From IMG/VR virus record IMGVR_UViG_3300032397_000001: DNA of 64,000 bases; one strand, given 5' to 3'. This DNA is from a virus. The notes under the pieces were generated by a model. That model saw nothing but the letters and a program-made list of their open reading frames with translations, was not told the origin of the DNA and made no database searches. Below are positions 1-60,760 of this stretch, piece after piece. The translations under genes were made by a program, and so were the position numbers. Each line of letters opens with the position of its first letter. Position 1 is the first letter of the stretch.

Positions 1-87
1 AAAGATTGTTGGCATCCAGAAGACGTTCCTCTGTGGAGAAAGGTATGGTTGTTAATCCGTTACGCAATCAAATACCATAGGAGGTAA
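1..87 (+). CDS. Partial small hypothetical protein (KDCWHPEDVPLWRKVWLLIRYAIKYHRR*), paralog of 53657..53758
   Basis: Open frame from base 1 to TAA at 85-87; nt 1-71 identical to 53663-53733. Confidence 0.5.
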   Translation, partial: KDCWHPEDVPLWRKVWLLIRYAIKYHRR

Positions 88-92
88 CAAGC

Positions 93-524: not shown

Positions 525-542
525 TTCGAAAGGAGAATTGTC

Positions 543-1484: not shown

Positions 1485-1489
1485 CTCCA

Positions 1490-1538
1490 AGAGAACCCGA
1501 GGATCCTTCATCGGTCTTTGGGTTCTCTCTCTTTTTTT
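1490..1538 (+). terminator. Intrinsic terminator after SSB
   Basis: agagaacccgagg...ctttgggttctct stem followed by T7. Confidence 0.7.
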
Positions 1539-3311: not shown

Positions 3312-3514
3312 CGCTTCCTCTAAGTAAGACCACTGAAATCTTGCCTTTGTACCACTCTGGTACTTCGATTATTCTTCTCACTAGACATTCCGAAGTATGA
3401 AAGGGGCACAACATTCGTTTCTCATTCCCAAGTCTTGAGTCTATATCACCTTATCTGTTCGGTAGAACGGAATACGATCTTCGAGATCCTGAGATTCGTG
3501 ATGAAGTTCGAAGG

Positions 3515-5668: not shown

Positions 5669-5678
5669 GGAGTCATTT

Positions 5679-5987
5679 ATGAAGTCTGTCACAATGTGTA
5701 TCTTTACTGATGAGAAACATCTTGGTGATGTGAAAAACTTAGTTTTGCCTGTAGATTCTACTCTTTACGTATTAGGTTTAAACAAGAAGGAACATAAGAC
5801 TTGTATACAGGTTGCGAAGAAGCATAGAGCGTTCAATTTATTAGAGGAGCATGGTATTGTGATGGTTATCATCGAAGCTGGTAACCGTCTTATAAAAGTC
5901 GCAGGGGCGGAAGCGATTGATCAATTTCTCTCCATGTATTTCGCTCAAACCCCTCAGAAGCCTGAAATAAATTTGGAGCGCTTGTAA
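5679..5987 (+). CDS. Hypothetical protein
   Basis: AAGGAG RBS; translationally coupled between TerL and portal. Confidence 0.7.
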   Translation: MKSVTMCIFTDEKHLGDVKNLVLPVDSTLYVLGLNKKEHKTCIQVAKKHRAFNLLEEHGIVMVIIEAGNRLIKVAGAEAIDQFLSMYFAQTPQKPEINLERL

Positions 5988-7315
5988 TGTCGAATACTGT
6001 TACGAAGGTTTGGCAGAGTACTCTTGGTAAGCTAGTTGAAGTAAAATTCTTTCCACGACGTACTCCTGAACAGATTCCACAAAGTAAAATCATCAAGGAA
6101 ACTTTGTCTGATTATCCTTCACCGGCTCAATTCCCCAATCTTTTTACTTTGTATAAGAGAAATTCCTGGATCTTTTCTTCTGTTAACATGATTGTGCAGT
6201 CTTGTGTTGCTGTGCCTTTACGTGTTCGTGATCGATCAACTAAACGTATTATTTCTCCTACTGAGACTACTGAAGTAGGAATAGTTTTAAAGTATCCTAA
6301 TCCATTTATGACTCAGATGGAATTGATGGAGCGTCTTTTTTTACATTTAGAGATTGTAGGGAATGCATTTTGGGAAATGGTAGTCCAGGGAAATAAACTT
6401 CTCGCGATTTATCCTCTTGATCCTACCTCGATGACGATTATACCTGATGCACGCAATCTTGTCAAGGAATATGTTTATTCGGTAAATGGGAAAGATACTC
6501 ACTTTGCGCCCAATGAGATTATACACTTTAAGTATGTTGATCCTCAGAGTGAATTTTGGGGCTGGGCTCCAGTAATGGTGATGATGCGTCAAGCCAGATT
6601 AGAAGACAAACTGAAAACATATGGTGAAAAATTCTTTGATAATGATGCTACCCCTAGTGTTGTTTTGAAGACAGACCGTATTCTTTCTGATCCTACTTAT
6701 GAACGTTTACGTAAACGGTGGCTGGAGCGGCATCAAGGCGCTGCGAATAAATTTTCTGTTGCAATTCTCGAAGATGGGATGTCTTTTGAAAAAGCTGGCA
6801 CAATAATGTCCGAGTTAGATTATTCTGCCATCGAGGATAAGGTTCGCGATGAAATTACAGTGTCGTCAGGAGTTCCTCCTACGTTGTTAGGGATTCCGGG
6901 AGTTGCAAATTATGCCTCCGCTCGAGTAGCTCAGTCGATGTTCTTTGATTCGATCATTGCACCTCGTTTACGTAAAATTGCAATGACTGTTGACAAAGAT
7001 ATAATGAATCGATTTGATCGTGATCGTGAAGCCGTCTTTGACACTTCGGTTGCACCCATAAATATTGTGAAGCTTAGTGCGAATTCTCGAGTGGTGGCTA
7101 GATTATATACGCTAGATCTTATGACTTTGGATGAAGCTCGAAATTTGTTAGGTTTAACTCCAGATGATAAAATAGGTGACAAATATAAGAGTGAAGTAGA
7201 TGCGGAGAGAAGAAAAAGGGCTGCTGCTAGTGAGGGAGGAGATTCTAGTACAGGAGCAGACGCAGGCAGCGCTGCTGAAGGGACTCAGCAGGACCCTGGT
7301 GATATAGGAGATTAA
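5987..7315 (+). CDS. Portal protein, HK97 family
   Basis: YPNPFMT, GNAFW, EIIHFK, FFDNDATP, AILEDGM, GVPPTLLG, MTLDEARNLLGL. Confidence 0.95.
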   Translation: MSNTVTKVWQSTLGKLVEVKFFPRRTPEQIPQSKIIKETLSDYPSPAQFPNLFTLYKRNSWIFSSVNMIVQSCVAVPLRVRDRSTKRIISPTETTEVGIVLKYPNPFMTQMELMERLFLHLEIVGNAFWEMVVQGNKLLAIYPLDPTSMTIIPDARNLVKEYVYSVNGKDTHFAPNEIIHFKYVDPQSEFWGWAPVMVMMRQARLEDKLKTYGEKFFDNDATPSVVLKTDRILSDPTYERLRKRWLERHQGAANKFSVAILEDGMSFEKAGTIMSELDYSAIEDKVRDEITVSSGVPPTLLGIPGVANYASARVAQSMFFDSIIAPRLRKIAMTVDKDIMNRFDRDREAVFDTSVAPINIVKLSANSRVVARLYTLDLMTLDEARNLLGLTPDDKIGDKYKSEVDAERRKRAAASEGGDSSTGADAGSAAEGTQQDPGDIGD

Positions 7316-7322
7316 TATAAAG

Positions 7323-8345
7323 ATGACTTTAGATGATCTTTTGAATGCAGCCTTAGGTAAGGTTAGTGATAAAGAACTTCTGGAAGGGCACCTCCGTTTA
7401 CATCAATGGTTTATGAATGCGCCAAAAGAGGATGTTAATGCTCGTCAGGATTTGTTAAGAGCCCATCAAAAAGTATACTTGGAATTCATTAGAAGGGGGC
7501 TGCATCATTCTCCTGGTGAGGGTATTGATAGAATTGATTTAGCATATCCTAAAATTGAAAGTTCAATGTATTCTGATTACTCTAATGCTGAAGCAATATT
7601 GGGCCAGAGTATTCCTAATACAAATGTGGGGTGGCATGCTTCATTGCATGACATTTGGATTGCGGTTAAAATGAGGATGGGTTTGACGAAACCTGAGGAA
7701 CAGTTGATTAATACTCATGACATTGTTACTAATAAAATGGGCCATCATCCTATTTGGGATGAATTGGATGCTGATTGGGTATCTCAGTTTAAAAGCTTTT
7801 CTATGATGGTAGATGAGGATCCTGAGTTTATTTCTCTAGAGAAGGTCCTTCAAGGTTTTCCTGATAAGATTACTCTTGTTTCAGGTGCGGTTACTTTTAA
7901 GAAAGGATCTATTTATATTGTAAAAGGAATTATGGGCTCTTTGCGTGTTGCGATTTTAGTCAAGTTGCTTCGGAGAACAACAGGTTCTGAGTTGCCCGAT
8001 CTGCCAGAAGATCCTGATAGTGTTTTTGATCTTGATTTGGTTAATCATAGAGTAGTTGATTCATTGATATTGTCTTATACTGATTCAGCTTTTCCTCCTT
8101 TATATTGGATTAGCCGACCATTTGTTTATCTGGTTGGAGGTGTTGTTGAAAGCAGGATTTCATTAGTAGATGCAGATATTTTGATTCGTAGTGGCCTTCC
8201 TGATTGGTTTTATCAACATGTAGTATCTACTCTGACTCTAGAACACCCAGAGGGGCATAATTTACATTTTTCGGCTGATATAGGTTTAGGGCCTTTATCA
8301 CATAATATTCCTCTGTATGATTTAGTGTTGGAGTTAGCCGTTTGA
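7323..8345 (+). CDS. Head-module protein with two His-rich repeats and a C-terminal Pol-beta-type nucleotidyltransferase-like domain
   Basis: Repeats HLRLHQW...AHQKV...HH and HASLHDIW...THDIV...HH; VYLVGG-x9-DADILI motif. Confidence 0.55.
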   Translation: MTLDDLLNAALGKVSDKELLEGHLRLHQWFMNAPKEDVNARQDLLRAHQKVYLEFIRRGLHHSPGEGIDRIDLAYPKIESSMYSDYSNAEAILGQSIPNTNVGWHASLHDIWIAVKMRMGLTKPEEQLINTHDIVTNKMGHHPIWDELDADWVSQFKSFSMMVDEDPEFISLEKVLQGFPDKITLVSGAVTFKKGSIYIVKGIMGSLRVAILVKLLRRTTGSELPDLPEDPDSVFDLDLVNHRVVDSLILSYTDSAFPPLYWISRPFVYLVGGVVESRISLVDADILIRSGLPDWFYQHVVSTLTLEHPEGHNLHFSADIGLGPLSHNIPLYDLVLELAV

Positions 8346-8896
8346 TACTTCAAATTGGGCCTGCTAAAGTAGAGATTTCGATTGATGATGGTGCCACCTT
8401 CTCTGAAGCTTTCGCGTCATCAGAAGCTAATATTACTCTCAATTTTCAGTATCGTGATCGTGTCAATGATGGTGTAGTAGTTGAATCTGCATATGAATCA
8501 GCTACTTTAACATTTGAATTGAACGCTACAGAATGGTCAATAGATGTTCTGAAGGCATTGTTCCCTTTTAGTTATTCTTATACTGATGCACCTACAGGAG
8601 TTCCCCGCACTACTAGAAGTCATCTTTTTGATTTGGGGGGTTTGACAGAAGAAGTTGAGACTAGTAATTATACACAATGTATTGTGTTTAAGAATGTACC
8701 TACCTGCTGGATAAAGTTTACACCTAATGTTACAGGCAAGGCAATAGGAGCTGAAATTCCAAAGGCAAGATTTGCTGAGGAGTTATCCATTCCGTTTGCA
8801 CCTTCACAGGAAGTAATACCTATTAAAGGAATAGGAATGAAATCACCTAATCAAAGTTTATTACTTATTTGGATGAATCAATGTATAATTCTATGA
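8342..8896 (+). CDS. Tail tube-like protein, paralog of major tail protein 20268..21416
   Basis: IGPAKV...ESATLTFELNATEWSIDVLKAL aligns by eye with IGPCVV...ETATLKFESIEWNLANLAKAL. Confidence 0.55.
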   Translation: MILQIGPAKVEISIDDGATFSEAFASSEANITLNFQYRDRVNDGVVVESAYESATLTFELNATEWSIDVLKALFPFSYSYTDAPTGVPRTTRSHLFDLGGLTEEVETSNYTQCIVFKNVPTCWIKFTPNVTGKAIGAEIPKARFAEELSIPFAPSQEVIPIKGIGMKSPNQSLLLIWMNQCIIL

Positions 8897-8909
8897 TAGG
8901 CAAAAAAAT

Positions 8910-8936
8910 TTGGCATCAGAGTCGCCAGGTTATAAT
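8910..8936 (+). promoter_or_regulatory. Candidate promoter for the methyl/glycosyltransferase insert
   Basis: TTGGCA-N15-TATAAT after an A-tract; also fits GG-N10-GC sigma54 spacing; spacing is suboptimal for sigma70. Confidence 0.35.
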
Positions 8937-9038
8937 ACGTAAGATTGTAAGATCGTGTTGTGGCAAGACAAGATTTCTTGTCGAAGACTCCAAGACAGGA
9001 AAACAAGAAATGATTATCGGCCGCCTTCCAGGTCAAAG

Positions 9039-9494
9039 ATGACTCCTCAAGTCTTAGAATTTGTACAAAAACTAAATTTACAAGGCCGAACACTTGATGT
9101 TGGAAGTATGGATGTCAATGGAAGTGTTCGTGATTTTTTTATAAACTATATTGGTCTTGACATGCGCCTTGGGAAAAATGTTGATATAGTTGCGAAGGCA
9201 AATCATCTTCCTTTCGTTAGTAATTTATTCGATAATGTGACATGCCTAGAAATGCTGGAGCACGATGATTGTTTCTGGGAAAGCATTCCTGAAATGATAA
9301 GAGTGTTAAAGATAGGTGGTTCTTTCGTTTTAACTGCTAGAGGAATTCATTTTGAGAAGCATGAATATCCTCATGATTATTGGCGCTTTACAAAAGAATC
9401 TTTTGAATTACTATGTAAAGGTTTAGCGAATATTGTTTGTATTGATGAAACCGGTGAAAGTGGTGTGTTCTTATGTGGAGTGAAGGGTGCCTAA
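9039..9494 (+). CDS. Class I SAM-dependent methyltransferase (ORF open from 8955)
   Basis: TLDVGS, IGLDM, CLEMLEH, RVLKIGG, HEYPHDYWRFT. Confidence 0.88.
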   Translation: MTPQVLEFVQKLNLQGRTLDVGSMDVNGSVRDFFINYIGLDMRLGKNVDIVAKANHLPFVSNLFDNVTCLEMLEHDDCFWESIPEMIRVLKIGGSFVLTARGIHFEKHEYPHDYWRFTKESFELLCKGLANIVCIDETGESGVFLCGVKGA

Positions 9495-11073
9495 ACTTTC
9501 TGTTTCTGTTGCAGTAATGAATCAGAAGGAGATCACTCAAACTTTTTTTGAGTCGTTGTATGCATTTACTATAGACTTTGAATTGATTATAACAGATAAT
9601 GGATCAGGCGATGAGACAGCTCAATTTCTAAGTGAGTTTGTTCAGGCTCACGAGAATGCGGTTCTCATTAGACACAAGTTGAATGTAGGATTTGGTAAAG
9701 CACACAATATAGCTTCACGTCGTGCTCAAGGCCAGTTTTTTGCTGTTTTAAATAACGACATTGAATTTTTTGAATTCTGGGCTGAAAAACTGTATCCTCT
9801 GTTCGATGAATCTAATGTTGCATTAGTAGGGCCATCAAATGGAGTTTGTAATTCGTTAACACCAGATGCACAAGGAGTATTCAACCCCGAGAAAGTAAAT
9901 GATCCTGATTACTGTGAAGGGTCATGTTTAATGATGCGAACTAAGCTAGCGCGTAAGTTTGGTCCATTCGACGAGGCTTATAGACTAGGATATTATGAAG
10001 ACTCAGACTTAGGAATTCGAATAAGGAAGGCAGGCTTCAAGTTAAAGACTGTACCTCTTGATTGGGTTCACTATCGTGCAAAGACTTCTTCTGCTGTAGC
10101 TGAAACACTTGATATACCAGGAATCCATTTTGTTAATGAGCAGATCTTTCGACGTCGATGGACAAGTTATCTTCTCCGTAAAAGGTTTGGTAAAACGTAT
10201 ATTATACAACGCAAAGGATCTCATGGAGATGTTCTCTTAACTACTCCAATTATTGAAGCAATTAAGAAAAGAGAGCCTGAATCAGTAATTTGTTTTTCTA
10301 CACAATGTCCTGAGACTATAGCAAGAAATTCTCAGATTGATTATCTAATCCCTCCTGATCTTCCATTTCAATGTGATGAGTTCATTAATCTGGACAGTTC
10401 TTATGAGAGGAGATTTAATGAGCATATTATTGATGTGTATGCTCGTGTAGCAAAAGTAAAAGTATTAAGGAAGAGAGCAAAGGTTACTTTGTTGAAAGAC
10501 GACTTCAAATTTATTGAGAGGTATCTTCCCCCCAAATTTAACTCTTATATAGTAGTTGATGTTAGTGATACATGGCAAGGAAAACAGTGGACTATTGAGA
10601 ATTGGGCTGGAGTTACTGAAGAATTAAGGAAACACAACATCACAGTTGTGTCTGTAGGCATTTCTAAAACACGCAATCTGAAAGGGATTGCACAAATAGA
10701 TCTTATCAATAAATTAAGCATATCGCAAACGTCTGCTGTGATTTGTCGTGCTGCAGGATTCATAGGAGCTGAAGGATTAACCGCTCATGTATCTCAGGCT
10801 GTTGACACCCCCTGTTTAGTTCTATATGGATGCACTTCTCCTCAATATGTTAGTTGTTCAGATGCAATGATTGAGCATGTAATTTCATCTGTTGCATGTC
10901 AAGGTTGTAGACATGTTTCATACCCTTCTGGAGTTACAGTTATTTGTAAACGTGATTATGAATGCATGAAGCGCATAACGGTTCAACACGTAATAGATCA
11001 GTTTGCTGTGTTAATGCAAAAATATGGCAAATTAGAAAAGGTAGTCCATTTGAAGGACGTTCCTAATGCGTAA
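9487..11073 (+). CDS. Glycosyltransferase fusion: GT2 (GT-A) plus GT9 heptosyltransferase-like (GT-B)
   Basis: IITDNGSGD, GFGKAHN, LNND, YYEDSDLG; then HGDVLLTTP, KQW, FIGAEG..AH, LYG. Confidence 0.9.
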   Translation: MPKLSVSVAVMNQKEITQTFFESLYAFTIDFELIITDNGSGDETAQFLSEFVQAHENAVLIRHKLNVGFGKAHNIASRRAQGQFFAVLNNDIEFFEFWAEKLYPLFDESNVALVGPSNGVCNSLTPDAQGVFNPEKVNDPDYCEGSCLMMRTKLARKFGPFDEAYRLGYYEDSDLGIRIRKAGFKLKTVPLDWVHYRAKTSSAVAETLDIPGIHFVNEQIFRRRWTSYLLRKRFGKTYIIQRKGSHGDVLLTTPIIEAIKKREPESVICFSTQCPETIARNSQIDYLIPPDLPFQCDEFINLDSSYERRFNEHIIDVYARVAKVKVLRKRAKVTLLKDDFKFIERYLPPKFNSYIVVDVSDTWQGKQWTIENWAGVTEELRKHNITVVSVGISKTRNLKGIAQIDLINKLSISQTSAVICRAAGFIGAEGLTAHVSQAVDTPCLVLYGCTSPQYVSCSDAMIEHVISSVACQGCRHVSYPSGVTVICKRDYECMKRITVQHVIDQFAVLMQKYGKLEKVVHLKDVPNA

Positions 11074-41773: not shown

Positions 41774-44200
41774 ATGGGAATTGTATTACTTGGGTATGTT
41801 GAGGGTCGAACCTTTGGTGCATGGCGTGGAAATGACATCAAGGAGGGATATTTCTGGAGTTGCTATCAATGCATAGGTTTTAATGAATATATTGTTCAAT
41901 ACCTTCCTAATATTATTGAGGGATATTTCTGGAGTTGCTATCAATGCATAGGTTTTAATGAATATATTGTTCAATACCTTCCTAATATTATTGAGATGAT
42001 ACCAAACCAGGAAGGTATTCAAGTATCATGTAGGCCCACCTCTTTAGCATCATTGGCAAACTCAATTTTATATACTCCACTTGGAAGTGAATGCATTCAC
42101 GGATCTTGGAATGTTCTTCATAGTCAAATAAATAAGACTGTAATCATCCCTGTTCCATTAGCTCTTAATGGATTTGAATTTCCAAGATTCATAGGTTCAG
42201 GAATTAGTAAACAGCCCTCTCAAGTTTTTAATGTTCCATTAATTGAAGGTGTACTTGTTGAGCAGTTTAATCCTGTTATAATACGAGACTCTGATTTATC
42301 ATTTACTAATGTAATTCCAACGGGATTTGCAGATCGTCCTATAATAGAGTCAAGAGTAAATGATCTTATACTTTCTGTTTCTTTACCTCTCTTTATAACA
42401 AGTTCTTTAGCACATTCTGATATCTCAATGATTCAATATATGTCAGGATCTGTAGGAGAATATATTGTAAAGGTTCGAGTAAATGATCTTATTGAAGGGC
42501 TGCAGATTTCTCAATGGGTTAGTTTTGAAGTATTAGATCATCCTGCAACCTTTATTCACGAGTTGGGTTTAGACATAACCAATTTCACTCTACTATTTTC
42601 TTTTACTATCCCTTCTGAAATTGAGCCTAGAGTTCCCTTCGGTAAGGAAGATTCTGATCCTGCAATATTATGGTATGACCCTCCGCCAGCACCTATTCCA
42701 TCTATTTTACCGATTCTCAAAGTTATTCAATTTGATATTCTGATTGATGGCATATCATGTAGGAATAGACTTTCCGGTGCAAGTATCACTCAACAAGAGT
42801 CTGACATTTTAACACATGTTGAATTAGTTTTCAAGGATACTACTTTCTTCAGTCAGTGTAGCATTACTGCAGGATCGGGGCCAGGAACCGAACGAATTAC
42901 TGTTCGAGTAGGTGAAGATATTACTGATCCTAATAGACATACATTATATAAATTTTTACTTGAGGAAAGATCTGCTTCTGAAGCGGGTTTACAGTTTACT
43001 GTTTGGGGGAGATCGAAGGCAGCTATTCTCACAGAACCATTTAGCCCTACAATTACTAAGACTTATGAGAATATGAATGCGAGTACAATTGTGAGTGATC
43101 TTGCAGGAAGCATTCCAATAGTTTGGGGTATTGATGATCATGTGCATTATGAGTTTAACGTTGATGGTTATCCCTTAGATGCGATCCAACAATTGGCTGA
43201 AGTGATAGGAGGTGTTGTTAGAGCAACGCCTGAAGGAAGTCTTGTAGTTCGTCGAAAGTTTCCAGCACGTCCTAGAGATTTGATAAGAGGTGATATTGTT
43301 ACTGGAAATGTTTTGGATAGGTACTCAGCTATTGTAGAAGCTGATTATTCCGAGGAGCAACCTCAGTATAATGCAGTTGATGTCTTAGGAGGTGGAAAGT
43401 ATTCATCTTGGGATTTTTCCATAGAAGCTGAGAATGATTGTATCGAACCAGGAACACCTGCTTTCTTTAAGGTGTATCACTCTCCAGGGATTACTATATA
43501 TAATCCTAACGAATCTGGTGTTGTAGGGTATCAAGTTTGTACTACAATTTCATTGGCTGAAGTTAACAATCTCAATGTAGTGGAAACTATTACAGATGAA
43601 TATATCGATATTATAAATGAAGCTGGAAGTTTGAATCGTGAGTGTTTTAGATTAATTTCTACTGAATGGCATGGGACTCCTAAAGGGTCGCAGTGTATTG
43701 AACCTGATGATATAGAAATTACGATTACCGGAAAGGATATTTCAGTTCCCAATGTTTTGACAGGCCGTTTAAAGGTAAGCTATGAAACACAATATGACCG
43801 ATTCAAAATTCAGTATGATCAGGAAGCTGATATCCTTATAGGTATATTGGCACCTGAACATGAGGGTATTTATATTCGTGTTATCATGCAAGGGACGCCT
43901 GGAGATAAGTTAGGACCTGAAATTCAAGATGATCTTATAACTAACGAGAATATGGCGGTTCTAAGGGGTCAATCTTTTCTTGATGATATGTACTACCGCA
44001 AACATAAGTGGACGCTTAAGATTCCTTTCTATCTACCTCAAGGTTTATTTGATGGCAGTATTGTTAGAATGGAAGATGACTTTTGGGGGTTAGTAGGTAA
44101 TGCTATAATTAGGCAGGCAGATATTTCCTTTGACCTAGAAGAGGAAGATGTTCATAAGATCTGGCAGAATTTAGAGGTTCATATGTTTTCTTATCCATGA
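41774..44200 (+). CDS. Baseplate hub/tail tip protein
   Basis: VWGRSKAAIL, PLDAIQQLAEVIGGVV...G.LVVR, I.DDLIT...RG..FL hub-like pattern. Confidence 0.65.
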   Translation: MGIVLLGYVEGRTFGAWRGNDIKEGYFWSCYQCIGFNEYIVQYLPNIIEGYFWSCYQCIGFNEYIVQYLPNIIEMIPNQEGIQVSCRPTSLASLANSILYTPLGSECIHGSWNVLHSQINKTVIIPVPLALNGFEFPRFIGSGISKQPSQVFNVPLIEGVLVEQFNPVIIRDSDLSFTNVIPTGFADRPIIESRVNDLILSVSLPLFITSSLAHSDISMIQYMSGSVGEYIVKVRVNDLIEGLQISQWVSFEVLDHPATFIHELGLDITNFTLLFSFTIPSEIEPRVPFGKEDSDPAILWYDPPPAPIPSILPILKVIQFDILIDGISCRNRLSGASITQQESDILTHVELVFKDTTFFSQCSITAGSGPGTERITVRVGEDITDPNRHTLYKFLLEERSASEAGLQFTVWGRSKAAILTEPFSPTITKTYENMNASTIVSDLAGSIPIVWGIDDHVHYEFNVDGYPLDAIQQLAEVIGGVVRATPEGSLVVRRKFPARPRDLIRGDIVTGNVLDRYSAIVEADYSEEQPQYNAVDVLGGGKYSSWDFSIEAENDCIEPGTPAFFKVYHSPGITIYNPNESGVVGYQVCTTISLAEVNNLNVVETITDEYIDIINEAGSLNRECFRLISTEWHGTPKGSQCIEPDDIEITITGKDISVPNVLTGRLKVSYETQYDRFKIQYDQEADILIGILAPEHEGIYIRVIMQGTPGDKLGPEIQDDLITNENMAVLRGQSFLDDMYYRKHKWTLKIPFYLPQGLFDGSIVRMEDDFWGLVGNAIIRQADISFDLEEEDVHKIWQNLEVHMFSYP
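41843..41995 (+). repeat. Perfect 75-bp tandem duplication (25 aa)
   Basis: EGYFWSCYQCIGFNEYIVQYLPNII twice, nucleotide-identical. Confidence 0.95.
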
Positions 44201-48024: not shown

Positions 48025-51003
48025 ATGCCTCGAATAGAGCACAGAGACGTTTTGTTTTCTGTATCGTCGAGATATTTTTGGGCTCGGATAGATGAAATCA
48101 ATTCTGATGATGACACAGCTGATATTGTTCTAGTTGATTCGAATTCTGAAGACATGTTAGATCCTGAGACAGGAGATCCAATTCTGATTGAAGATGTTCC
48201 TATATTTTTCCATTGTGATCCTGATCCTATTCAACGACCTAATCTCGCGTTAGAAGGAGGTTCAGCAGCGTTTGATATTGACGATATTGTTTACTGTAGG
48301 AAGTCTCAAGGCTCATTTATCAAACCTTTTGTCATTGCTAATTCAGTCTTAAAGAGTTGTGAACCTCCAGGGTTAATCATTGCAACTCCTTCTGGCTTGA
48401 TTCACATGGATCCTATTTCAGCTAATCCTCCTGCTGATTATTTCAGGCAAGACTTCTATATGCGTTGGATAGGCAACAACCGAAAGCATCCTTTAGTTCA
48501 GAGAACAGTGGGAGAATTCTTCTTAGATACACCATGTATTACAATGGATGGTAATGTTGATAAGTGGGCCTATGAAAACAATAAAAGACGTGTAGCAATA
48601 GGTGAAGAAGCTAAGCATGAAGGATTTGCTAAAGCATTCGCCCAAATCAATATGACTACATATAACATGCAGCATCCCATTTTAACTTGTGATCCGAAAA
48701 CATGGTCAAGTACCGCTGGAATTTTCGAGCAACACCAAGCTATCTATTATATGAAAGACTATGCAATCCTGTTTGACAAAATGTTTGATCTTGCAGGAGC
48801 AAGTGACGGCTGGGGGAGACTTGGCATCACTTACGGTAAAACGCAACCTATAGATCGCTCTGATGATGACCCTGAAACCGCTGCATTAAGCTTCCCCATT
48901 GTTTTCCCAGGCACTAATTATGGAGAGAGAGCACAGACACCTAACCCAATTATTAGTGGTAGTGCTAGATTTTTCAAGTGGGTAAACGACGAGAGAAAGA
49001 ACTTTCATTTAATTCACGAGCTTAATATAAATTCTGATTTGAACGCCTGTGCACAATCGTATGCTTCTTATTGTGCAACGAATATGTGTCTCGCACATGA
49101 TTGTGATGGACGAACTCCTGGTGAGAGAGTAAGTGATTATATTGATCCTTGGCATCTCGTAGGAGAAGTTGTTGTTGCAATTCCTGGTCAAGATCCTCCT
49201 TTATCTCTCAACGATGTAATCGATGCTATGTGGATTGGATGGACAGAAAGTGAACTTCATTATGCTGGGCTAATGAACCCTCAAATGAATCACATTGGAT
49301 TTGGGTATGCGTTCAATGCTGGTTGGGGTGCTAATGGTATGTATATAGGTGTTGCCTTAATGCTTAAGAAGATAAGCAAAGGCACATGTGAAAGAGCATA
49401 CGCGGCACCTTCATATGAAGGTGACAGATCACCTAATCCGTATCCAATTAATCTAACAGCTTTTTCCCCGCTAGTTACTGAAGCGCATCCACCTAGGTTA
49501 AGCCTCCTGTATGGTGGTGACTCAATCATTAATAGTTACAAAGCCTTCAGTGCATTTAGTAGGAGACCTAGTTCAACTTACTTATATGGAATCAATATTG
49601 AAGCAGACAGAGTATTATATGACCCAGATGATCCAGCTCAGACGTACATCTTAAGGATGTATGGATCATGTTGTGAAATTAGTCCATCGAGCTTTGCCCT
49701 AACTCCAGGCAATTCCAATCAACAGTTCAGTGATACTGAGTACTATTACAATGATTTGATACTTTGGGCATTAGGAACATATATGTGGTTTCCTGGATAT
49801 ATACCAATTCCAACCTATCCACCTCCATGGTGGCAAACCCCTCCCATTCCCAGAACATTAATTCCTGAAGGAAGGGAATACTTTGAATATCATCCCAGCG
49901 GAAGTTCATTCGTTAAGTTTGATATACGAGGGCATACTCCACAAGAGCTTTACGTTGATGATAACCTTGTTGATTCTGGATTCGATCCTCTTGATCCTCC
50001 AATCATAGAAGGAGATGGTTCTCTCATCACGAGAACTCTATTTAGAAACTCAGCCAGAGTTGCCATTAAATCTCTTACTAGTATTCAACCTTTATCTGTA
50101 TTCCGAACTTGCACAACAAATTATACAGCTGTACTTTACTCCAAAAGTGAAACAAATCTTATCTCCTCAATCAATCAAGTGTGCCATAGCAATCGACTCT
50201 TAGCCTATTATTTTGAAACTGTTATAACTACTTATCTCGCTCTCATTTGCAACGATTCAGTTGTTGATAGAGTTCAATTGCAATCATTCCCTTCACATAA
50301 TTTAAACGATGACACAGCACCTTCATGCGGAGGAGGCATCCCCAAAACCATTTCATGGCGAGCAGATAGTATTCAAGAGAATTTCATTTTTCTTTTTGAT
50401 GGTTGCATTTCTGATATAACAATATCATATGTCAATCCTGATGATAATGTATTATACTCTTATGCATATGAAGACATCGAACTTGGTCCTTGTCCTGTAG
50501 CATTCAAGAATATAGAGCGTTATCAGGGCTTAGTAGAGATTGCTTTTGGTCAGCCAGCTCCCATTCGCAACGTCAATTGTACTTCCAGAGTATCTTCCAA
50601 ATCTGAACCCGCTGAGCCTTGGAGCTATACTTTTTATTGGTCCTTCATTCATTACAATGAGTACGAAGAATTTATTATCCCTCATTCCTTAAATGGTTTT
50701 GTATCCTTATCTCATTCAATTTCTATGTCTGAAGATGGAACCTATATTTTAGTATCAAACACTCCTATGGATGTAACTTTAATTCCATATATAAATTCAA
50801 TCCCAGGCGACCCTAATTTTTGTGATGACGTTTACTCTTATATCATCTCGACAGATCCATCTGAATGGACAATTGACTTTCCTGACAAAGAACGTCCTAA
50901 ATCAGTGGTTCAATTATTTAATAACAATCTAGAACCTTTAACTGATCCTATCTTAACAGGTCAAACATCCAAAGGGATGGGAGAGTATTGTATAGTAAAT
51001 TAA
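48025..51003 (+). CDS. Tail-associated/receptor-binding protein with CAP (SCP) domain
   Basis: VNDER...LNACAQSYA...AH...GRTPGERV...VGEVV...WTESELHYAGLMNPQMNHIGFG; N-terminal VPIFFHC...EGGSAAF. Confidence 0.65.
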   Translation: MPRIEHRDVLFSVSSRYFWARIDEINSDDDTADIVLVDSNSEDMLDPETGDPILIEDVPIFFHCDPDPIQRPNLALEGGSAAFDIDDIVYCRKSQGSFIKPFVIANSVLKSCEPPGLIIATPSGLIHMDPISANPPADYFRQDFYMRWIGNNRKHPLVQRTVGEFFLDTPCITMDGNVDKWAYENNKRRVAIGEEAKHEGFAKAFAQINMTTYNMQHPILTCDPKTWSSTAGIFEQHQAIYYMKDYAILFDKMFDLAGASDGWGRLGITYGKTQPIDRSDDDPETAALSFPIVFPGTNYGERAQTPNPIISGSARFFKWVNDERKNFHLIHELNINSDLNACAQSYASYCATNMCLAHDCDGRTPGERVSDYIDPWHLVGEVVVAIPGQDPPLSLNDVIDAMWIGWTESELHYAGLMNPQMNHIGFGYAFNAGWGANGMYIGVALMLKKISKGTCERAYAAPSYEGDRSPNPYPINLTAFSPLVTEAHPPRLSLLYGGDSIINSYKAFSAFSRRPSSTYLYGINIEADRVLYDPDDPAQTYILRMYGSCCEISPSSFALTPGNSNQQFSDTEYYYNDLILWALGTYMWFPGYIPIPTYPPPWWQTPPIPRTLIPEGREYFEYHPSGSSFVKFDIRGHTPQELYVDDNLVDSGFDPLDPPIIEGDGSLITRTLFRNSARVAIKSLTSIQPLSVFRTCTTNYTAVLYSKSETNLISSINQVCHSNRLLAYYFETVITTYLALICNDSVVDRVQLQSFPSHNLNDDTAPSCGGGIPKTISWRADSIQENFIFLFDGCISDITISYVNPDDNVLYSYAYEDIELGPCPVAFKNIERYQGLVEIAFGQPAPIRNVNCTSRVSSKSEPAEPWSYTFYWSFIHYNEYEEFIIPHSLNGFVSLSHSISMSEDGTYILVSNTPMDVTLIPYINSIPGDPNFCDDVYSYIISTDPSEWTIDFPDKERPKSVVQLFNNNLEPLTDPILTGQTSKGMGEYCIVN

Positions 51004-51049
51004 ATTAAATATAGCTTGTTGATTAAGGAGTTGTCTAGCTAACAACCTT

Positions 51050-51432
51050 ATAAATACCTCATATTTCCTTCCTATACACACACAGCATAAATACCTCATA
51101 AATACCTCATAAATACCTTAACTTTCTCCACTTATTTAGGCTAACGCTAACGCTAACGCTATAAATACCTCTTATTTAGTTAAGCTAACGCTAACGCTAT
51201 AAATACCTCTTATTTAGTTAAGCTAAGGCTAAAGCTAAAGCTAACGTTAAAGCTAAGCTAACGCTATAAATACCTCTTATTTAGTTAAGCTAACGTTAAA
51301 GCTAAAGCTAAAGCTAACGTTAAAGCTAAAGCTAAAGCTAACGCTAAATAAATACCTCTTATTTAGTTAAGCTAACGCTAACGTTAACGCTAAAGCTAAA
51401 GCTAAATAAATACCTCATAAATACCTCTTATT
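51050..51432. repeat. Array A: ~10 copies of ATAAATACCTC separated by GCTAAC/GCTAAA/GTTAAA hexamer runs
   Basis: Read directly from the sequence. Confidence 0.95.
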
Positions 51433-51704
51433 ATGGCTAAAAAGCTGTTTGGGAATGTAAATATTGGGCGCCAAATGATGGCCTCCCGCTGGGGGGGAGC
51501 GGGGCCGTAAAGTCTATGTTTTATATAGAAATTTCTAGAATCTTTTAGTCTAGAGTTTGAGGTAAATAGGCGCTATTTGAGGTATGTATATTATATGTGA
51601 TTATGCGAATATCGATATATAGGAGGTATTTATCATTGAAAATATCATCATTATGAGTAATAGAGAAGGGTACTTTGTTTATTAACTACGAAAGGAGAAG
51701 TGCT

Positions 51705-51965
51705 ATGGAGAAAGAAGAGTTAGATCCTAATCTCAGTTTAACGAAAGGAGAATCTATGAAAGAAGACATTCAGATTCAAGAACAGTTCGTTAACCAGTAC
51801 AAGGTAACACTCGATGAGTACAAGCAGCGGGATGGCTTTTCAGAAATCTGGATCTGTGTTCGAGAGTTATCATCATTCGGAAGATGGATTCCTTCAAGAG
51901 ATTACGTCGCTGTCAAGTTCAGGAGATGGCTTGCTGATGGGTTAAGGTTGAGAAACATCTATTAA
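51705..51965 (+). CDS. Hypothetical protein
   Basis: AAAGGAG RBS before ATG 51705. Confidence 0.6.
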   Translation: MEKEELDPNLSLTKGESMKEDIQIQEQFVNQYKVTLDEYKQRDGFSEIWICVRELSSFGRWIPSRDYVAVKFRRWLADGLRLRNIY

Positions 51966-52000
51966 CAATGACCACAACCAGAGAAGAATGGAGGTACAAG

Positions 52001-52294
52001 ATGAACAAATTAAAACTTATCGATTCAATGAGGCAATCAATCGAGGGAATGGTTAACAAACTTATCGAGGAGTATGGTGACAATTCAGGGCTCTTCGACG
52101 TGATTATTCGTCGTCAACATGTCAAAGGTTGTAAAGATGTCGAAGAAGGAATTGATGTCTTTGTATCTGTTGAGGTTGGTCGTGAATTCGTTGAGCTAGT
52201 TGATGACTCATGGGCCGTTGAAGAGGAATGGTACAATCAAATACCATACAAACATAAAAGTGCTTACAATCTGTGGAGAAAGTTACTGTGGTAG
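52001..52294 (+). CDS. Hypothetical protein
   Basis: GGAGGT RBS before ATG 52001. Confidence 0.65.
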   Translation: MNKLKLIDSMRQSIEGMVNKLIEEYGDNSGLFDVIIRRQHVKGCKDVEEGIDVFVSVEVGREFVELVDDSWAVEEEWYNQIPYKHKSAYNLWRKLLW

Positions 52295-52335
52295 AAATGA
52301 CTAAACTTTTTAACATTCAATGGAGGTGATTAAAA

Positions 52336-52521
52336 ATGGCAATCAAAGATGAGCTTCTCGAAATCAATGAGATTCTGCAGCAGTGGTTAGAAGGAGGCAT
52401 GACAGAAGAGGAAGCAATGAGGCATATTATCGTTGTTGTGGCTAAGCAATTGACTTCAATGAAGGAAGATGTCTCTCCTGTGATAGGGCAATACGTGATC
52501 TGGAGCAAGAAATTTGAGTGA
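52336..52521 (+). CDS. Small hypothetical protein (MAIKDELL...), source of partial copies at 53755-54025
   Basis: GGAGGTGA RBS; followed by a hairpin. Confidence 0.7.
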   Translation: MAIKDELLEINEILQQWLEGGMTEEEAMRHIIVVVAKQLTSMKEDVSPVIGQYVIWSKKFE

Positions 52522-52578
52522 TTAATGTCAATACGAGATCTAAGCTTTACTGTTTAGGTCTCGTGTTTACTCTTAATC
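52520..52578 (+). terminator. Long hairpin, putative terminator or processing site
   Basis: atacgagatctaa/ttaggtctcgtgt stem with gattaa/ttaatc outer arms. Confidence 0.5.
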
Positions 52579-52673
52579 AGTGGTAACCGTTGTCTTTATA
52601 GGAGGGAATAGTTATGAAAGAATATTACTGGTCAGCAGATACTTGATCTATTTCAGTAAGGGAGGGTATAATC

Positions 52674-53054
52674 ATGAGAAAGATTGTATTTGCAGTATCG
52701 TGTACATTCCTAATCGGTATCAACTTAACTCATTGTCATCAGTGTACGGTTTCTCGCGTGATAGATGGTGATACTATTGAATGTGCTGAATTCATTCGGC
52801 ATATTAGACTTGAAGGAATTGATACTCCTGAAGTAGGTGATCAACATGGCCTTATAGTTAAGGAGGTACTTGAAACATTCATTCTCGGAAAGGAGGTGAC
52901 ATTTAGGTATAATCATTGTGATCACTATGGTCGTATTGTAGGTACTGTTTATGAAGGAGGTGATAACATTAACAAAGCAATGCTTAGATGTATCTATGTG
53001 AAACCATTTAGGTGGAAAGATCAATCACGTAATCAACAATGTGAGATTGAATGA
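52674..53054 (+). CDS. Thermonuclease (SNase) family protein with signal-like N-terminus
   Basis: VIDGDTI, IRLEGIDTPE, DHYGRIVG, INKAML. Confidence 0.85.
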   Translation: MRKIVFAVSCTFLIGINLTHCHQCTVSRVIDGDTIECAEFIRHIRLEGIDTPEVGDQHGLIVKEVLETFILGKEVTFRYNHCDHYGRIVGTVYEGGDNINKAMLRCIYVKPFRWKDQSRNQQCEIE

Positions 53055-53368
53055 AAGGAGGTTATTATAAAATGTCAGAAGAAGCATTGAAAGAGTTTGA
53101 GAGAGTACGACAAGAAATGCGCAATCCAGAACAACAGTCGATTGAACTTGACTGTGCTCCTGGGTATCCTCGCCCAGGAGATCTCATCGATGGAGTAATT
53201 GAAGGGTTAGGTCTCGAAAAGAAGGAGACATGCTCTAAAGTATTTGGTAATTGGAAATGGGTTTATCCAGAGGTTCCTGCAGAGAAGTGGAAAGAGATTC
53301 GAGAAGTACTCAAGGAAAGAATTTCAAAGCTCTATAATAGTGGGGTAATTCGCTATGGTAGTTGGTAG
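53051..53368 (+). CDS. Hypothetical protein (likely start 53072)
   Basis: AAAGGAGG RBS; IELDCAPGYPRPGDL...IRYGSW. Confidence 0.7.
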   Translation: MKGGYYKMSEEALKEFERVRQEMRNPEQQSIELDCAPGYPRPGDLIDGVIEGLGLEKKETCSKVFGNWKWVYPEVPAEKWKEIREVLKERISKLYNSGVIRYGSW

Positions 53369-53404
53369 TAACGATTCATCCAGAGAAGAATGGAGGTGAT
53401 TAAG

Positions 53405-53623
53405 ATGCTATTTGGTCCATGCGTTGGTGGTAAGTGTCCATATTACAGTAGAGCATTGAAGAAATGTAAACTCGGAAAGGCTAACCCTACAACAGAAAAG
53501 AGAACTCTCGAAGTTGTTGAGTTAATGGGCTGGTCTTACATCTGTATGCGGAACCCTTGGAAGAAAGAGGCCTTGTTTCAAATCTCACAGAAGAAAGGAG
53601 AGAGTGAGGTTGCAAGTTCTTGA
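53405..53623 (+). CDS. Small Cys-containing hypothetical protein
   Basis: GGAGGTGA RBS; C-x4-CPY...C...C. Confidence 0.6.
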   Translation: MLFGPCVGGKCPYYSRALKKCKLGKANPTTEKRTLEVVELMGWSYICMRNPWKKEALFQISQKKGESEVASS

Positions 53624-53656
53624 TAATGAGTTATTTCCCGGAAGGAGAAAGCCAAG

Positions 53657-53758
53657 ATGAAAAAAGATTGTTGGCATCCAGAAGACGTTCCTCTGTGGAG
53701 AAAGGTATGGTTGTTAATCCGTTACGCAATCAAGAATCGTTGTAGAAAGGAGGTATGA
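53657..53758 (+). CDS. 33-aa hypothetical protein, paralog of 1..87
   Basis: GAAGGAG RBS; MKKDCWHPEDVPLWRKVWLLIRYAIKNRCRKEV*. Confidence 0.5.
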   Translation: MKKDCWHPEDVPLWRKVWLLIRYAIKNRCRKEV

Positions 53759-54025
53759 CAGAAGAGGAAGCAATGAGGCATATTAGCGTTGTTGTGACTA
53801 AGCAATTGACAACATTCAATGGAGGTGATTAAAAATGGCAATCAAAGATGAGCTTCTCGAAATCAATGAGATTCTGCAGCAGTGGTTAGAAGGAGGCATG
53901 ACAGAAGAGGAAGCAATGAGGCATATTATCGTTGTTGTGGCTAAGCAATTGACTTCAATGTTGGTGGTGATTAAAAATGGCAATCAAAATCAATGAGAAT
54001 CTGCAGCAGTGGTTAGAAGGAGGTG
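53755..54025 (+). repeat. Rearranged partial copies of 52312-52461
   Basis: 53811-53960 identical to 52312-52461; flanked by diverged or deleted partial copies. Confidence 0.9.
53835..53996 (+). CDS. Chimeric copy of 52336 gene with new C-terminus (53 aa)
   Basis: Same RBS and first 42 codons as 52336..52521. Confidence 0.45.
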   Translation: MAIKDELLEINEILQQWLEGGMTEEEAMRHIIVVVAKQLTSMLVVIKNGNQNQ

Positions 54026-54114
54026 AAATGAGAATCGTTGTAGTTGTCTTCGGTTCATTAGTGTCTATGGCTATCTTTGCGTTAATGGTTTACATCGCTC
54101 ATCAGATTCATTAG
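53977..54114 (+). CDS. Small membrane protein with N-terminus derived from the 52336 gene (alternative start 54028)
   Basis: MAIKINENLQQWLEGGE-MRIVVVVFGSLVSMAIFALMVYIAHQIH*. Confidence 0.45.
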   Translation: MAIKINENLQQWLEGGEMRIVVVVFGSLVSMAIFALMVYIAHQIH

Positions 54115-54125
54115 GAGGATTCACA

Positions 54126-54326
54126 ATGGAGATTAACAGAGAACTCGACAACTTCAAACAGCTGCTTGAGACTCGTAATCAGATCCTTCAAGACAAAATT
54201 CATCTTCTTGAGAAGGAGAGACTCTTCCTTCAAGCTGCGAAGGAGTCGGTCTTGAATTTCGGTCTTGTGGATCTCCTCGATATCAACTGGTCTAAAATGA
54301 GATATTTCGTTCGACGTGGTGGCTAG
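54126..54326 (+). CDS. Small coiled-coil hypothetical protein
   Basis: AGGAGG RBS. Confidence 0.65.
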   Translation: MEINRELDNFKQLLETRNQILQDKIHLLEKERLFLQAAKESVLNFGLVDLLDINWSKMRYFVRRGG

Positions 54327-54343
54327 AACACCTAGGACCAGTC

Positions 54344-54388
54344 GAGTCACCTCTGATCCTTGAGTCACCTCTGATCCTTGAGTCACCT
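54344..54388. repeat. 18-bp tandem repeat, 2.5 copies (GAGTCACCTCTGATCCTT)
   Basis: Read directly. Confidence 0.9.
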
Positions 54389-54544
54389 TACATCTAATAC
54401 TAAAGTTAGTAGTTTATGCTTTGTGTGATTCTTGTGAAAGGAGGTGATATGGTTATCTATATTATACTCATACTCTTTGTGTGGGTATACTGGGGCAGGT
54501 GGTGAGGGGGCTTAACGCCACTATAGAGAGGAGGTGAAAACAGA

Positions 54545-54889
54545 ATGGCAGAAGACCTCAACGCAATGTTCGCAGCTGCCGAGAAGGCGGTGGCCAACGG
54601 CCTTGACAAGTACGCAGGTACAGGTCAGGGTTTGAGAGGCATCATCTTCACGGCGATGGATGAGTTCAGGAAAGCGAACAAGAGCAAGACGTACAGACGC
54701 GCTGCTCTTGTACGATACCTCCTGACTCTGAAACCTGTTCAGGCCGGGCTGATTGCGACTGCAGAGCGTGTCATTGGCTTCGGTAAGCAAGACGCGATGC
54801 AGAGACTAAATAACCATCTCGGCCAGTGGTCCAAAAAGCGAGGCTGCAAGGAAGGCGGCGCTCGCGGAACGACCACAGTAACCCTGTAA
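54545..54889 (+). CDS. Basic hypothetical protein with GC-rich codons
   Basis: GGAGGTG RBS; own terminator. Confidence 0.75.
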   Translation: MAEDLNAMFAAAEKAVANGLDKYAGTGQGLRGIIFTAMDEFRKANKSKTYRRAALVRYLLTLKPVQAGLIATAERVIGFGKQDAMQRLNNHLGQWSKKRGCKEGGARGTTTVTL

Positions 54890-54894
54890 CAGCT

Positions 54895-54929
54895 AGAGGA
54901 GGTAGGGCTTGTCCTTGCCTCCTCTTTTT
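54895..54929 (+). terminator. Intrinsic terminator
   Basis: agaggaggtaggg/ccttgcctcctct stem plus T-tract. Confidence 0.75.
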
Positions 54930-55544
54930 CTGCTTAACCAAAACATTTTTTTGTTTACCTCAAACCTATACACACACAGCTTACATGTCTCCTCGGTCCA
55001 CTCCGCTCGGCGTCGTTACCTTTCCTGTTTGACTCAGCCTACGCGCCCCGCGGAACTTACTGGGGATTGTACGTTAAAAAGTTTAGTCATTGTATTTCCC
55101 ATATTGTGAGATTAGTTTTCAGGTAGGGGCCGGCCCTAAAAACTTAGCTAACTATTTGATTTTATTATGTTTTTTGAAGAATGTGACTTGAGCAACTAAT
55201 AGGGAATAATTGTTCTAAAATAATCGTTAAGCACTATAAAAGTAGACAAGTTATATTCATGTCATTCCTAATGCTGTTCGCTAATTCATGTCATAGGCCA
55301 ATAAAGATTTTCTTTGAGCCCGTGACTATTATATTATGAACAAATACAAACTGATACAAAACTCTAAAACAAACTGATACAAAACTCTAAAACAAGCTAA
55401 TACGTTCAATGTGTTATAATGAGATAAAGTAAGCCCAAAGTTATTCTGTAACAAGTTTAGTCTTAATTCGTTTTAGTGATAAGTTTATTTGTTCCTTGAT
55501 CCAAAGTTATTCTGATGCGCTAAGTGCTACCAGATATATAGTAT

Positions 55545-55786
55545 GCTGAGTGTCAATCGTTAGCTGAGAGTCAATCGTAAGTGTCAATCGTTAGCTGAGT
55601 GTCAATCGTAAGTGTCAATCGTTAGCTGAGAGTCAATCGTAAGTGTCAATCGTAAGTGTCAATCGTAAGTGTCAATCGTAAGTGTCAATCGTAAGTGTCA
55701 ATCGTAAGTGTCAATCGTTAGCTGAGTGTCAATCGTAAGTGCCAATCGTTAGCTGAGTGTCAATCGTAAGTGTCAATCGTTAGCTG
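55545..55786. repeat. Array B: 16 copies of a G(T/A)GTCAATCGT core in 13-bp and 18-bp units
   Basis: Read directly; most cores read TTGACA on the minus strand. Confidence 0.95.
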
Positions 55787-55898
55787 GGGGCCCCCCCGGG
55801 AAGAGATAATGAACGCGTAGCCGGGCTGGACCGGGCCGGGTAGGGTGCATTGAAATTAACTATTTCCAAAAGTAACTATTTCCGGAAATCGTGATAGG

Positions 55899-56460
55899 GA
55901 TAGGGCTAATAGTTATAGTTATAGTTATAGTTTAAAGCTAAGGATAGGGCTAATAGTTATAGTTATAGTTATAGTTTAAAGCTAAGGCTAGGGCTAATAG
56001 TTATAGTTATAGTTATAGTTATAGTTTAAAGCTAAGGCTAGGGCTAATAGTTATAGTTATAGTTTAAAGCTAAGGCTAGGGCTAATAGTTATAGTTATAG
56101 TTATAGTTTAAAGCTAAGGCTAGGGCTAATAGTTATAGTTATAGTTTAAAGCTAAGGCTAGGGCTAATAGTTATAGTTATAGTTATAGTTTAAGGCTAAG
56201 GCTAGGGCTAATAGTTATAGTTATAGTTTAAAGCTAAGGCTAGGGCTAATAGTTATAGTTATAGTTATAGTTTAAGGCTAAGGCTAGGGCTAAGTTAAGC
56301 TAAAGCTAAGGCTAGGGCTAATAGTTATAGTTATAGTTTAAAGCTAAGGCTAGGGCTAATAGTTATAGTTAAGTTAAGTTAAGCTAAGCTAAGTTAAGTT
56401 AAGTTAAAGCTAATTTAGGCTAAGTTAAGTTAGGCTAAGTTAAGCTAATTTAGGCTAAAG
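55899..56460. repeat. Array C: ~12 units of TAGGGCTAATAG(TTATAG)2-4TTTAA(A/G)GCTAAGGC, ending in TAAGT/TAAGC pentamers
   Basis: Read directly. Confidence 0.95.
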
Positions 56461-56482
56461 CCAAACCAATATCGAGGTCAGA

Positions 56483-56830
56483 ATGAAAAATCTCATATGC
56501 TTTAGTCTTGTCATTATAAGCTTACTGCTATCGAGTACAGCTTACTCCACCCAGGCGACATTTACTTGGAACGCCAATTCAGAAAGTGATCTATCAGGTT
56601 ACAAACTATATCAGAGTGATGTTAGTGGAAAATATATTAAAGGTAACTATCTTACAACTATCTACGCTCCCAGCACAACGTGTACTATCAATGTCCCTGA
56701 ACTATCTCTGCACAAGATGATCTATTGGGTATTAACTGCTTTTGATGTTGCTGGAAACGAGAGCAGTTTTTCGAGTGAAGTAAATAGAGTGATTCCAACA
56801 GATCCTGGAGAACCCATTGTGTTTCATTAA
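56483..56830 (+). CDS. Secreted fibronectin type III domain protein
   Basis: Signal peptide; WNANSESDLSGYKLY...LTAFDVAGNESSFSSEV. Confidence 0.8.
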   Translation: MKNLICFSLVIISLLLSSTAYSTQATFTWNANSESDLSGYKLYQSDVSGKYIKGNYLTTIYAPSTTCTINVPELSLHKMIYWVLTAFDVAGNESSFSSEVNRVIPTDPGEPIVFH

Positions 56831-60686: not shown

Positions 60687-60760
60687 GGAGTGAGGCAGAA
60701 GTCGGGCACCTTCCCGGCCTTCCCCAGGGCCGTCCCGTCCTCCACATTCTGCCTCACTCC
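60687..60760. ncRNA. Candidate structured RNA/element: 14-bp perfect inverted repeat enclosing a GC-rich core
   Basis: ggagtgaggcagaa ... ttctgcctcactcc, followed by tttcttt. Confidence 0.35.

Follow-up and report, generated by a model that had tools for sequence, protein, structure and literature searches.

Organization of the locus

The IMG/VR record IMGVR_UViG_3300032397_000001 derives from an uncultured sediment phage. The 64,000-nt stretch analysed here (the window; positions are counted from its first letter) is an internal piece of a contig of about 169 kb, and this work concerns the segment between 51004 and 56482, where arrays of short repeats bracket an island of small genes. An earlier note had listed at this place three arrays (A, B and C), two GC-rich patches, small genes with strong ribosome-binding sites, one of them for a nuclease, and non-coding DNA, and had proposed that the segment represents the genome termini or a first-transferred early region. 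All of the listed elements were found at the coordinates that the note had assigned to them.

On its left side the locus adjoins the last tail gene (48025-51003, + strand), which encodes a 992-aa protein with a CAP domain and closes the late module. Array A and a GC-rich patch separate this gene from the island, a set of about 12 small genes on the + strand (51675-54889) with strong AGGAGG-type ribosome-binding sites. An intrinsic terminator consisting of a 13-bp stem followed by a T run (54895-54925, + strand) closes the island operon. Beyond it lie 1.55 kb of repeat-rich, gene-free DNA that include arrays B and C, and then a gene for a secreted, Fn3-like protein of 115 aa (56483-56830, + strand), the first in a long run of early-type genes. 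The segments 51004-51674 (671 nt) and 55110-56482 are the two largest gaps without an open reading frame in the window.

Three arrays of short repeats

Array A (51050-51432, + strand) comprises ten cores of the 11-nt sequence ATAAATACCTC, with tandem 11-mers at both of its ends. When one mismatch is allowed, this core has 13 matches in the 64 kb against 1.3 expected; ten of them are the + strand copies within the array, and two more, one exact and one with a single mismatch, lie in inverted orientation at 51579-51633. The array is built on two levels: five of the cores are extended to an 18-nt palindrome-like site of the form TAAATA-N5-TATTTA, and the spacers are runs of GCTAAC, GCTAAA or GTTAAA hexamers that differ in length. 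To the right of the GC-rich hairpin described below, three inverted and partly degenerate versions of the core (partial or exact) occupy positions 51557-51633 (+ strand numbering). They overlap a candidate sigma-70-like promoter (TTGAGG, 16 nt, TGtGATTAT; about 51.58-51.60 kb) upstream of the first small gene. This putative promoter was picked out by eye; an automatic promoter scan did not list it, and in that scan sigma-70-like sites were not over-represented (17, with 17.6 expected).

Array B (55549-55786, + strand) contains 16 copies of the core GTGTCAATCGT, where 0.9 would be expected, in alternating units of 13 and 18 nt, and stops abruptly at a G5C7G3 palindrome. Array C (55895-56460, + strand) consists of about 11 units of 38, 44 or 50 nt (Tandem Repeats Finder score up to 608), which are assembled from TAGTTA and GCTAAG/GCTAGG hexamers followed by AGTTA/AGCTA runs. 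The array ends 20 nt short of the next gene. The earlier note had attributed a common GCTAA/TTAGC core to all three arrays. This holds well for A and C, which carry 26 and 31 copies of GCTAA, respectively, all on the + strand, the other 51 kb having 43. The case for array B is weak, as it contains only six TTAGC, opposite in orientation to the GCTAA of A and C and confined to its 18-nt units. The three arrays are far beyond chance. Their motifs were absent elsewhere between window coordinates 1 and about 97,000, other intergenic regions included (coordinates past 64,000 continue the numbering of the window into 47 kb of downstream DNA, which was traced through contigs of other samples).

GC-rich patches and spacers

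Two patches of high GC content accompany the arrays. The left one (51476-51510) can form a hairpin whose 6-bp stem encloses seven consecutive G residues. The right one (55811-55849) is part of the roughly 110 nt of unique sequence, GC-rich in places, that separate array B from array C (55783-55895) and contain the G5C7G3 palindrome, a patch of 70% GC and two 16-nt repeats. Both patches begin with GCTGGGGG, and they account for two of the five 30-nt windows of at least 77% GC in the 64 kb. As hairpins both are weak (6-bp stem; z of -1.9 and -1.1). Only one other patch of at least 77% GC outside the locus is non-coding; it is intergenic, at 60703-60743, upstream of a gene that begins at 60780.

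The two sides of the island also share the 16-mer CCTATACACACACAGC, present in exact copies at 51071-51086 and at 54965-54980 (both + strand). These are its only two matches in the 64 kb, even with three mismatches allowed. Between the end of the island and array B lies an AT-rich, gene-free spacer (55140-55545; 27-34% GC) with direct repeats of 23, 14 and 11 nt.

Variation between samples

The same phage was found in many samples of one sediment study at 99.8-100% identity. Samples that contain it include JGI 3300032516, 3300032053, 3300031834, 3300031997, 3300032164 and 3300037011, and sequencing runs such as SRR9616645, SRR9617119, SRR9617927, SRR9651337/8 and SRR11714509. Over 13.8 kb compared between samples, differences were limited to array C, array B and one single-nucleotide polymorphism. 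Variants of array C differ by a single ATAGTT unit, gained or lost, by a 28-nt deletion or by a 120-nt insertion; a variant of array B has three extra 31-nt units (contig L008). Thus, the arrays act as variable-number tandem repeats. They are not assembly artefacts, since independent contigs of other samples carry them with differing numbers of units. Of all sites array C varies most, and it is where contigs chiefly break. Breaks sit inside array C, inside array B and inside a 150-nt duplication internal to the island, and some fall at identical nucleotides in different samples. Contig starts at one and the same position also occur inside array C (56175), and such coincidence is no proof of an end.

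Two other places were considered as physical ends and rejected. One is a cluster of contig ends at about 103.6-105.3 kb, where the contig of about 169 kb itself starts and stops. Three long contigs begin within about 1.1 kb of one another, and many contigs of about 47.4 kb end near 103.6 kb. At the same spot lies a polymorphic fibre gene, and two other contigs, one of 131 kb and one of 40.7 kb, run across it. According to the gene calls, this gene lies at about 101.2-104.2 kb in window coordinates; it occurs in forms of 1006 and 784 aa depending on the sample, and Logan contigs stop 2148 nt into it. The fibre gene probably varies between strains in its receptor-binding part, a variation that explains where contigs of this phage start and stop. 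The other place is the left edge of the window, where positions 1-71 are an exact copy of island DNA at 53663-53733 (71 nt), some 53 kb away. The window is internal to the contig of about 169 kb and its edge was discarded on that ground; the copied segment probably continues to the left of the window.

Terminase and gene order

The large terminase, TerL, is a 717-aa protein encoded at 3515-5668 (+ strand). Its sole strong PHROG match is to phrog_38 (4e-41), the family that T7 gp19 matches at 6e-135. The T5 TerL matches phrog_2, to which the TerL of the window had no match at E <= 0.001. In tblastn searches, the matches were mostly terminases of the T7-like ("maturase B") and N4-like groups, at 21-26% identity. 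Genomes of both groups end in exact direct terminal repeats. A TerL of the T7 family would therefore favour fixed ends with direct terminal repeats, a plausible but soft indication. Together with the terminal repeats of the two groups, the family of the protein favours an analogy with T7 over one with T5 or SPO1, and it is from here that fixed, repeated ends draw their chief positive support. RcXuper, a distant TerL match with a genome of 147 kb, has a record that ends without a repeat or arrays.

The N-terminal part of TerL contains an insertion of about 200 aa (residues 108-310, approximately) that weakly resembles the intein splicing domain (PF14890), with a match (4.8e-4) short of the cutoff. 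The insertion may be an intein or the remnant of one.

All credible genes of the window, that is, all real-looking open reading frames of at least 100 aa, are on the + strand. A RecA-like gene (1537-2601) and a small-terminase-like gene, TerS (2601-3311), both on the + strand, precede TerL. After it come, on the same strand, portal, protease and capsid genes, the gene for a 5310-aa tape measure protein, and tail genes up to position 51003. Called genes in the 47 kb downstream are essentially all on the + strand as well and comprise modification enzymes, dozens of small genes, a Gad2-like anti-defence gene, a 5'-3' exonuclease (FEN) and ribonucleotide reductase (RNR), the last two at about 96-100 kb in window coordinates, and finally the 1006-aa fibre. 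The gene order thus runs on one strand from the small genes round to the tail end at 51003, and the locus is the single late-to-early border of a one-strand genome.

Comparison with known systems

The earlier note had compared the arrays with those at the ends of T7, and the comparison was correct. In T7, CCTAAAG occurs three times in the 160-bp terminal repeat, with eight exact and five one-mismatch copies to the right and about seven exact or near-exact copies to the left of the right-hand copy of the repeat, all on the + strand. In each of the two phages the large terminase belongs to the T7 family, and a short A-rich motif (xCTAAAG) recurs many times, always on one strand, to either side of a central segment that has hairpins with G or C runs within it or next to it. 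Both loci also occupy the late-to-early border of a one-strand genome. They differ in several respects. The heptamers of T7 are dispersed, whereas here the hexamers form near-perfect tandem runs with higher-order units of 38-82 nt. The bracketed segment measures 160 bp in T7; here the stretch between the outer arrays, a possible terminal repeat, is 4.4 kb long, holds some 12 genes and includes array B, a third one of unrelated sequence. Lastly, the genome is of 169 kb and specifies a 5310-aa tape measure protein, and no phage RNA polymerase was seen in the 64-kb window.

With T5 and SPO1, which the note had also invoked, the correspondence is one of analogy only. The T5 terminal repeat (1-10219) includes a terminator at 9275, and an injection stop signal is annotated at 9140-10149; about 1.8 kb of gene-free DNA follow the terminator, and several dispersed repeat families straddle the border of the repeat. 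In both phages, therefore, small early genes with nuclease functions lead to a terminator and then, where the repeat (putative in the present case) has its inner border, to 1.5-1.8 kb of DNA that lacks genes but holds several families of short repeats. The likeness to the T5 stop region is an architectural resemblance only. The T5 TerL is of a different family (phrog_2), and Pfam and PHROG scans of the island proteins revealed no homologues of A1, A2 or dmp. Moreover, the T5 repeats are dispersed 15-25-mers rather than tandem arrays, and the pre-early genes of T5 lie on both strands.

A kilobase-scale repeat between short-unit arrays has a precedent in the SPO1-like Bacillus phage phiAGATE, whose 2.7-kb terminal repeat, inferred from 1.9-fold coverage, is flanked by tandem repeats of 7 and 8 nt (PMC3900605). 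As in that phage, short-unit tandem arrays lie here on both sides of a (putative) repeat of this scale and the assembly is seemingly circular. phiAGATE is, however, a myovirus and belongs to another lineage; at about 50-80 nt, its arrays are also far smaller.

Closer relatives were not found: GenBank phages gave no DNA match, and IMG/VR held no relative and no exact match to array B. When protein relatives of the flanking tail genes were searched, the 708-aa tail protein matched only itself. The 992-aa protein has an N-terminal anchor domain of about 115 aa that is common to other phage tail proteins, and the 50 metagenome loci reached through this domain belonged to unrelated phages without comparable arrays.

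A possible genome-end and early-control region

We tentatively favour the reading that the locus is the concatemer junction (genome end) and early-control region of a large siphovirus-like phage with a T7-type terminase, although we hold it to be somewhat short of probable. What the analysis establishes is the anatomy of the locus, the family of the terminase, the order of the genes, the uniqueness of the array motifs and the polymorphism of the arrays; that the ends lie at this place, how long the repeat is and which proteins act on it is what we infer. The order along the concatemer would be the last late (tail) gene up to 51003, array A, the segment of which each end of the virion DNA receives a copy, array C and finally the early genes. 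Arrays A and C, alike in hexamer and orientation, would form the outer flanks of the terminal repeat in the manner of the T7 heptamer arrays and could serve as landing or spacing sites for the machinery that packages DNA and duplicates the ends. The repeated segment might, as the earlier note had proposed, be the entire 4.3-4.4-kb island between the two GC patches, in which case the small genes would enter the cell first. Alternatively, it might be a short (about 100-150 bp), unique and GC-rich piece beside one of the arrays, at 51.43-51.55 or 55.78-55.90 kb. The long version is in itself doubtful, and a short repeat at one GC patch takes a similar share. As for early control, one dimeric protein bound to the palindromic sites of array A and to the inverted copies over the promoter-like site would shut off or time the island operon.

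An extended form of this reading, itself rather unlikely, has a direct terminal repeat of about 4.4 kb whose borders would be set by the two matching hypervariable hexamer arrays, so that end formation of the T7 type would be combined with staged entry of the T5 type. Such a repeat would carry the genes that enter first, among them that of an exported nuclease, as well as an internal "stop/hold" array of 16 iterons.

What stands of the earlier proposal of genome ends is the part that draws on the T7 comparison, on the family of TerL and on the late-to-early border; the part that drew on T5 and SPO1 does not. T7-type genomes have their ends at such a border, and the position of the locus supports ends here for this reason. 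That the array motifs are found nowhere else up to about 97 kb fits a cis site present once per genome.

Several points weigh against genome ends at this place. A replication origin, a partition site or an operator field for early promoters fit nearly as well. Every contig break in the region is within a repeat, which makes the contig ends here repeat artefacts and not physical ends, and long contigs from several samples cross arrays A, B and C uninterrupted. The assembly closes on itself, as it would with terminal repeats but equally with circular permutation. With any terminase of assigned packaging type, TerL shares only about 21-26% identity, and the type deduced from its family is correspondingly soft. 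The known repeats in the T7 family are short, and one of 4.3 kb would be unusual for such a terminase. In the one syntenic relative (P0002 contig, 27.4 kb; JGI 3300075153), a gap of about 810 nt follows the last tail gene, and the 9.7 kb beyond it include none of 1.5 kb. Finally, in phiCbK the 10-kb terminal repeats start within terL, well away from every module border (PMC3556154), so that such borders are no proof of ends.

Alternative explanations

The abundance of closely spaced sites could denote a replication origin, with arrays B, A and/or C as iterons for a phage initiator and the AT-rich DNA at 55.14-55.54 kb as the unwinding element. The 16 identical sites of array B adjoin a gene-free stretch of 27-34% GC, and several repeat families are stacked within 1.5 kb; in this the locus resembles known iteron origins (lambda ori, P1 oriR, P4 ori/crr type), where many identical short sites lie beside an AT-rich stretch. 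T7 has secondary origins beside its ends, so that the origin and genome-end readings are not exclusive. We nonetheless consider an origin unlikely. Pfam and PHROG scans recognised no initiator, helicase or primase gene next to the arrays, the nearest replication-type genes being some 40 kb off, and the lead to a winged-helix protein, provided by the 114-aa product of the last island gene, is weak (see below). DnaA boxes are not enriched (16 against 19 expected), and none lies in gene-free DNA. The three repeat families are unrelated, and the arrays are several times longer than known origins. Cumulative GC skew, a check that the earlier note had suggested, climbs steadily through the window and does not reverse at the 64-kb scale; there is a small local dip at 49-51.4 kb, which at array A is driven by the composition of the repeat itself. 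An operator or early-control field alone, in which a regulator of the phage or its host would sit on the arrays and time the island operon and the next one, with the ends elsewhere or permuted, seems to us unlikely too, and if anything slightly more so. The 18-nt palindrome-like sites of array A are typical of dimeric regulators, the inverted cores overlap the promoter-like site that immediately precedes the first island gene, and array C abuts the start of the next gene. Furthermore, unit numbers vary freely between samples, which implies that exact geometry is not critical. Yet some 60 binding-site-like units in three families far exceed the need of any operator, the motifs are missing from all other intergenic regions over about 97 kb, and sigma-70-like sites are not in excess.

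The ordered structure of the arrays bears on a further possibility, which we regard as improbable: that they are fast-evolving satellites without sequence-specific function, forming the recombination-prone borders of a swappable accessory island and promoting exchange of the small-gene block. The exact internal duplications in the island, the 71-nt copy of an island gene at window positions 1-71, and the fact that the arrays are essentially the sole polymorphic sites in 13.8 kb would all fit this explanation. Conversely, the two-level order, the conserved cores and the strict strand bias argue for selection on the motif, and no second phage with a different island between the same arrays was found among GenBank phages, in IMG/VR or at the 50 metagenome loci. 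Least probable of all is a centromere-like site, in which the arrays would be a parC-like binding field. The tandem 11-nt cores at the ends of array A and the 13-nt units of array B do resemble iteron runs of the parC type. However, known parMRC and alp loci keep the centromere next to their genes, and the Pfam and PHROG scans found nothing ParR- or AlpA-like in the island.

Other features of the island and the genome

Among the island proteins, only an SNase-family nuclease (gene at 52674-53054) was assigned to a family in the Pfam and PHROG scans (PF00565, 8.5e-9; 36 bits against a cutoff of 21). It has a hydrophobic, signal-like N-terminus that ends in a Cys. To judge by this N-terminus, the protein may be exported or membrane-anchored, which would be unusual for an early phage nuclease; superinfection exclusion is one possible role.

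The last island gene (54545-54889, + strand; 114 aa, 55% GC) and the DNA just past the terminator form a segment (54545-55075) with 50-56% GC in a genome of about 40% GC, which suggests a recently acquired cassette. The 114-aa protein has weak winged-helix-like structural neighbours in the Atlas (TM score of about 0.5), and its AF2 model is poor (pLDDT 54).

The duplication mentioned above is a 150-nt segment at 52312-52461 (+ strand) that recurs without mismatch at 53811-53960 and in part at 53668-53817 and 53984-54023. These repeats are a sign of gene-fragment shuffling within the island.

Elsewhere in the window, the gene for an 808-aa tail protein contains an exact 75-nt tandem duplication (41843-41992). 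A 154-kb contig of another sample has a single copy of this segment, and the in-frame duplication is thus polymorphic in the population. Downstream, the Gad2-like gene (PF26128, anti-Gabija family) is followed by an HTH_17 gene, both at about 91.8-92.8 kb in window coordinates (L076:15346-16353) among small early-type genes. Searches for Rfam families and tRNA genes found none.

Implications

Whatever their function, the arrays can be used as strain markers, and they explain the fragmentation of assemblies at this locus. The kind of feature is already known; it is the host genome that is unusual. Should the locus be an origin or an operator field instead of a genome end, it would be of an ordinary kind and an unusually large example of it. 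If the genome-end reading is true, matching one-strand arrays of short units, together with a T7-family terminase, would mark, from sequence alone, where the genomes of an uncultured lineage of giant phages physically end and which of their genes enter first, and end formation of the T7 type would be extended to a genome four times larger.

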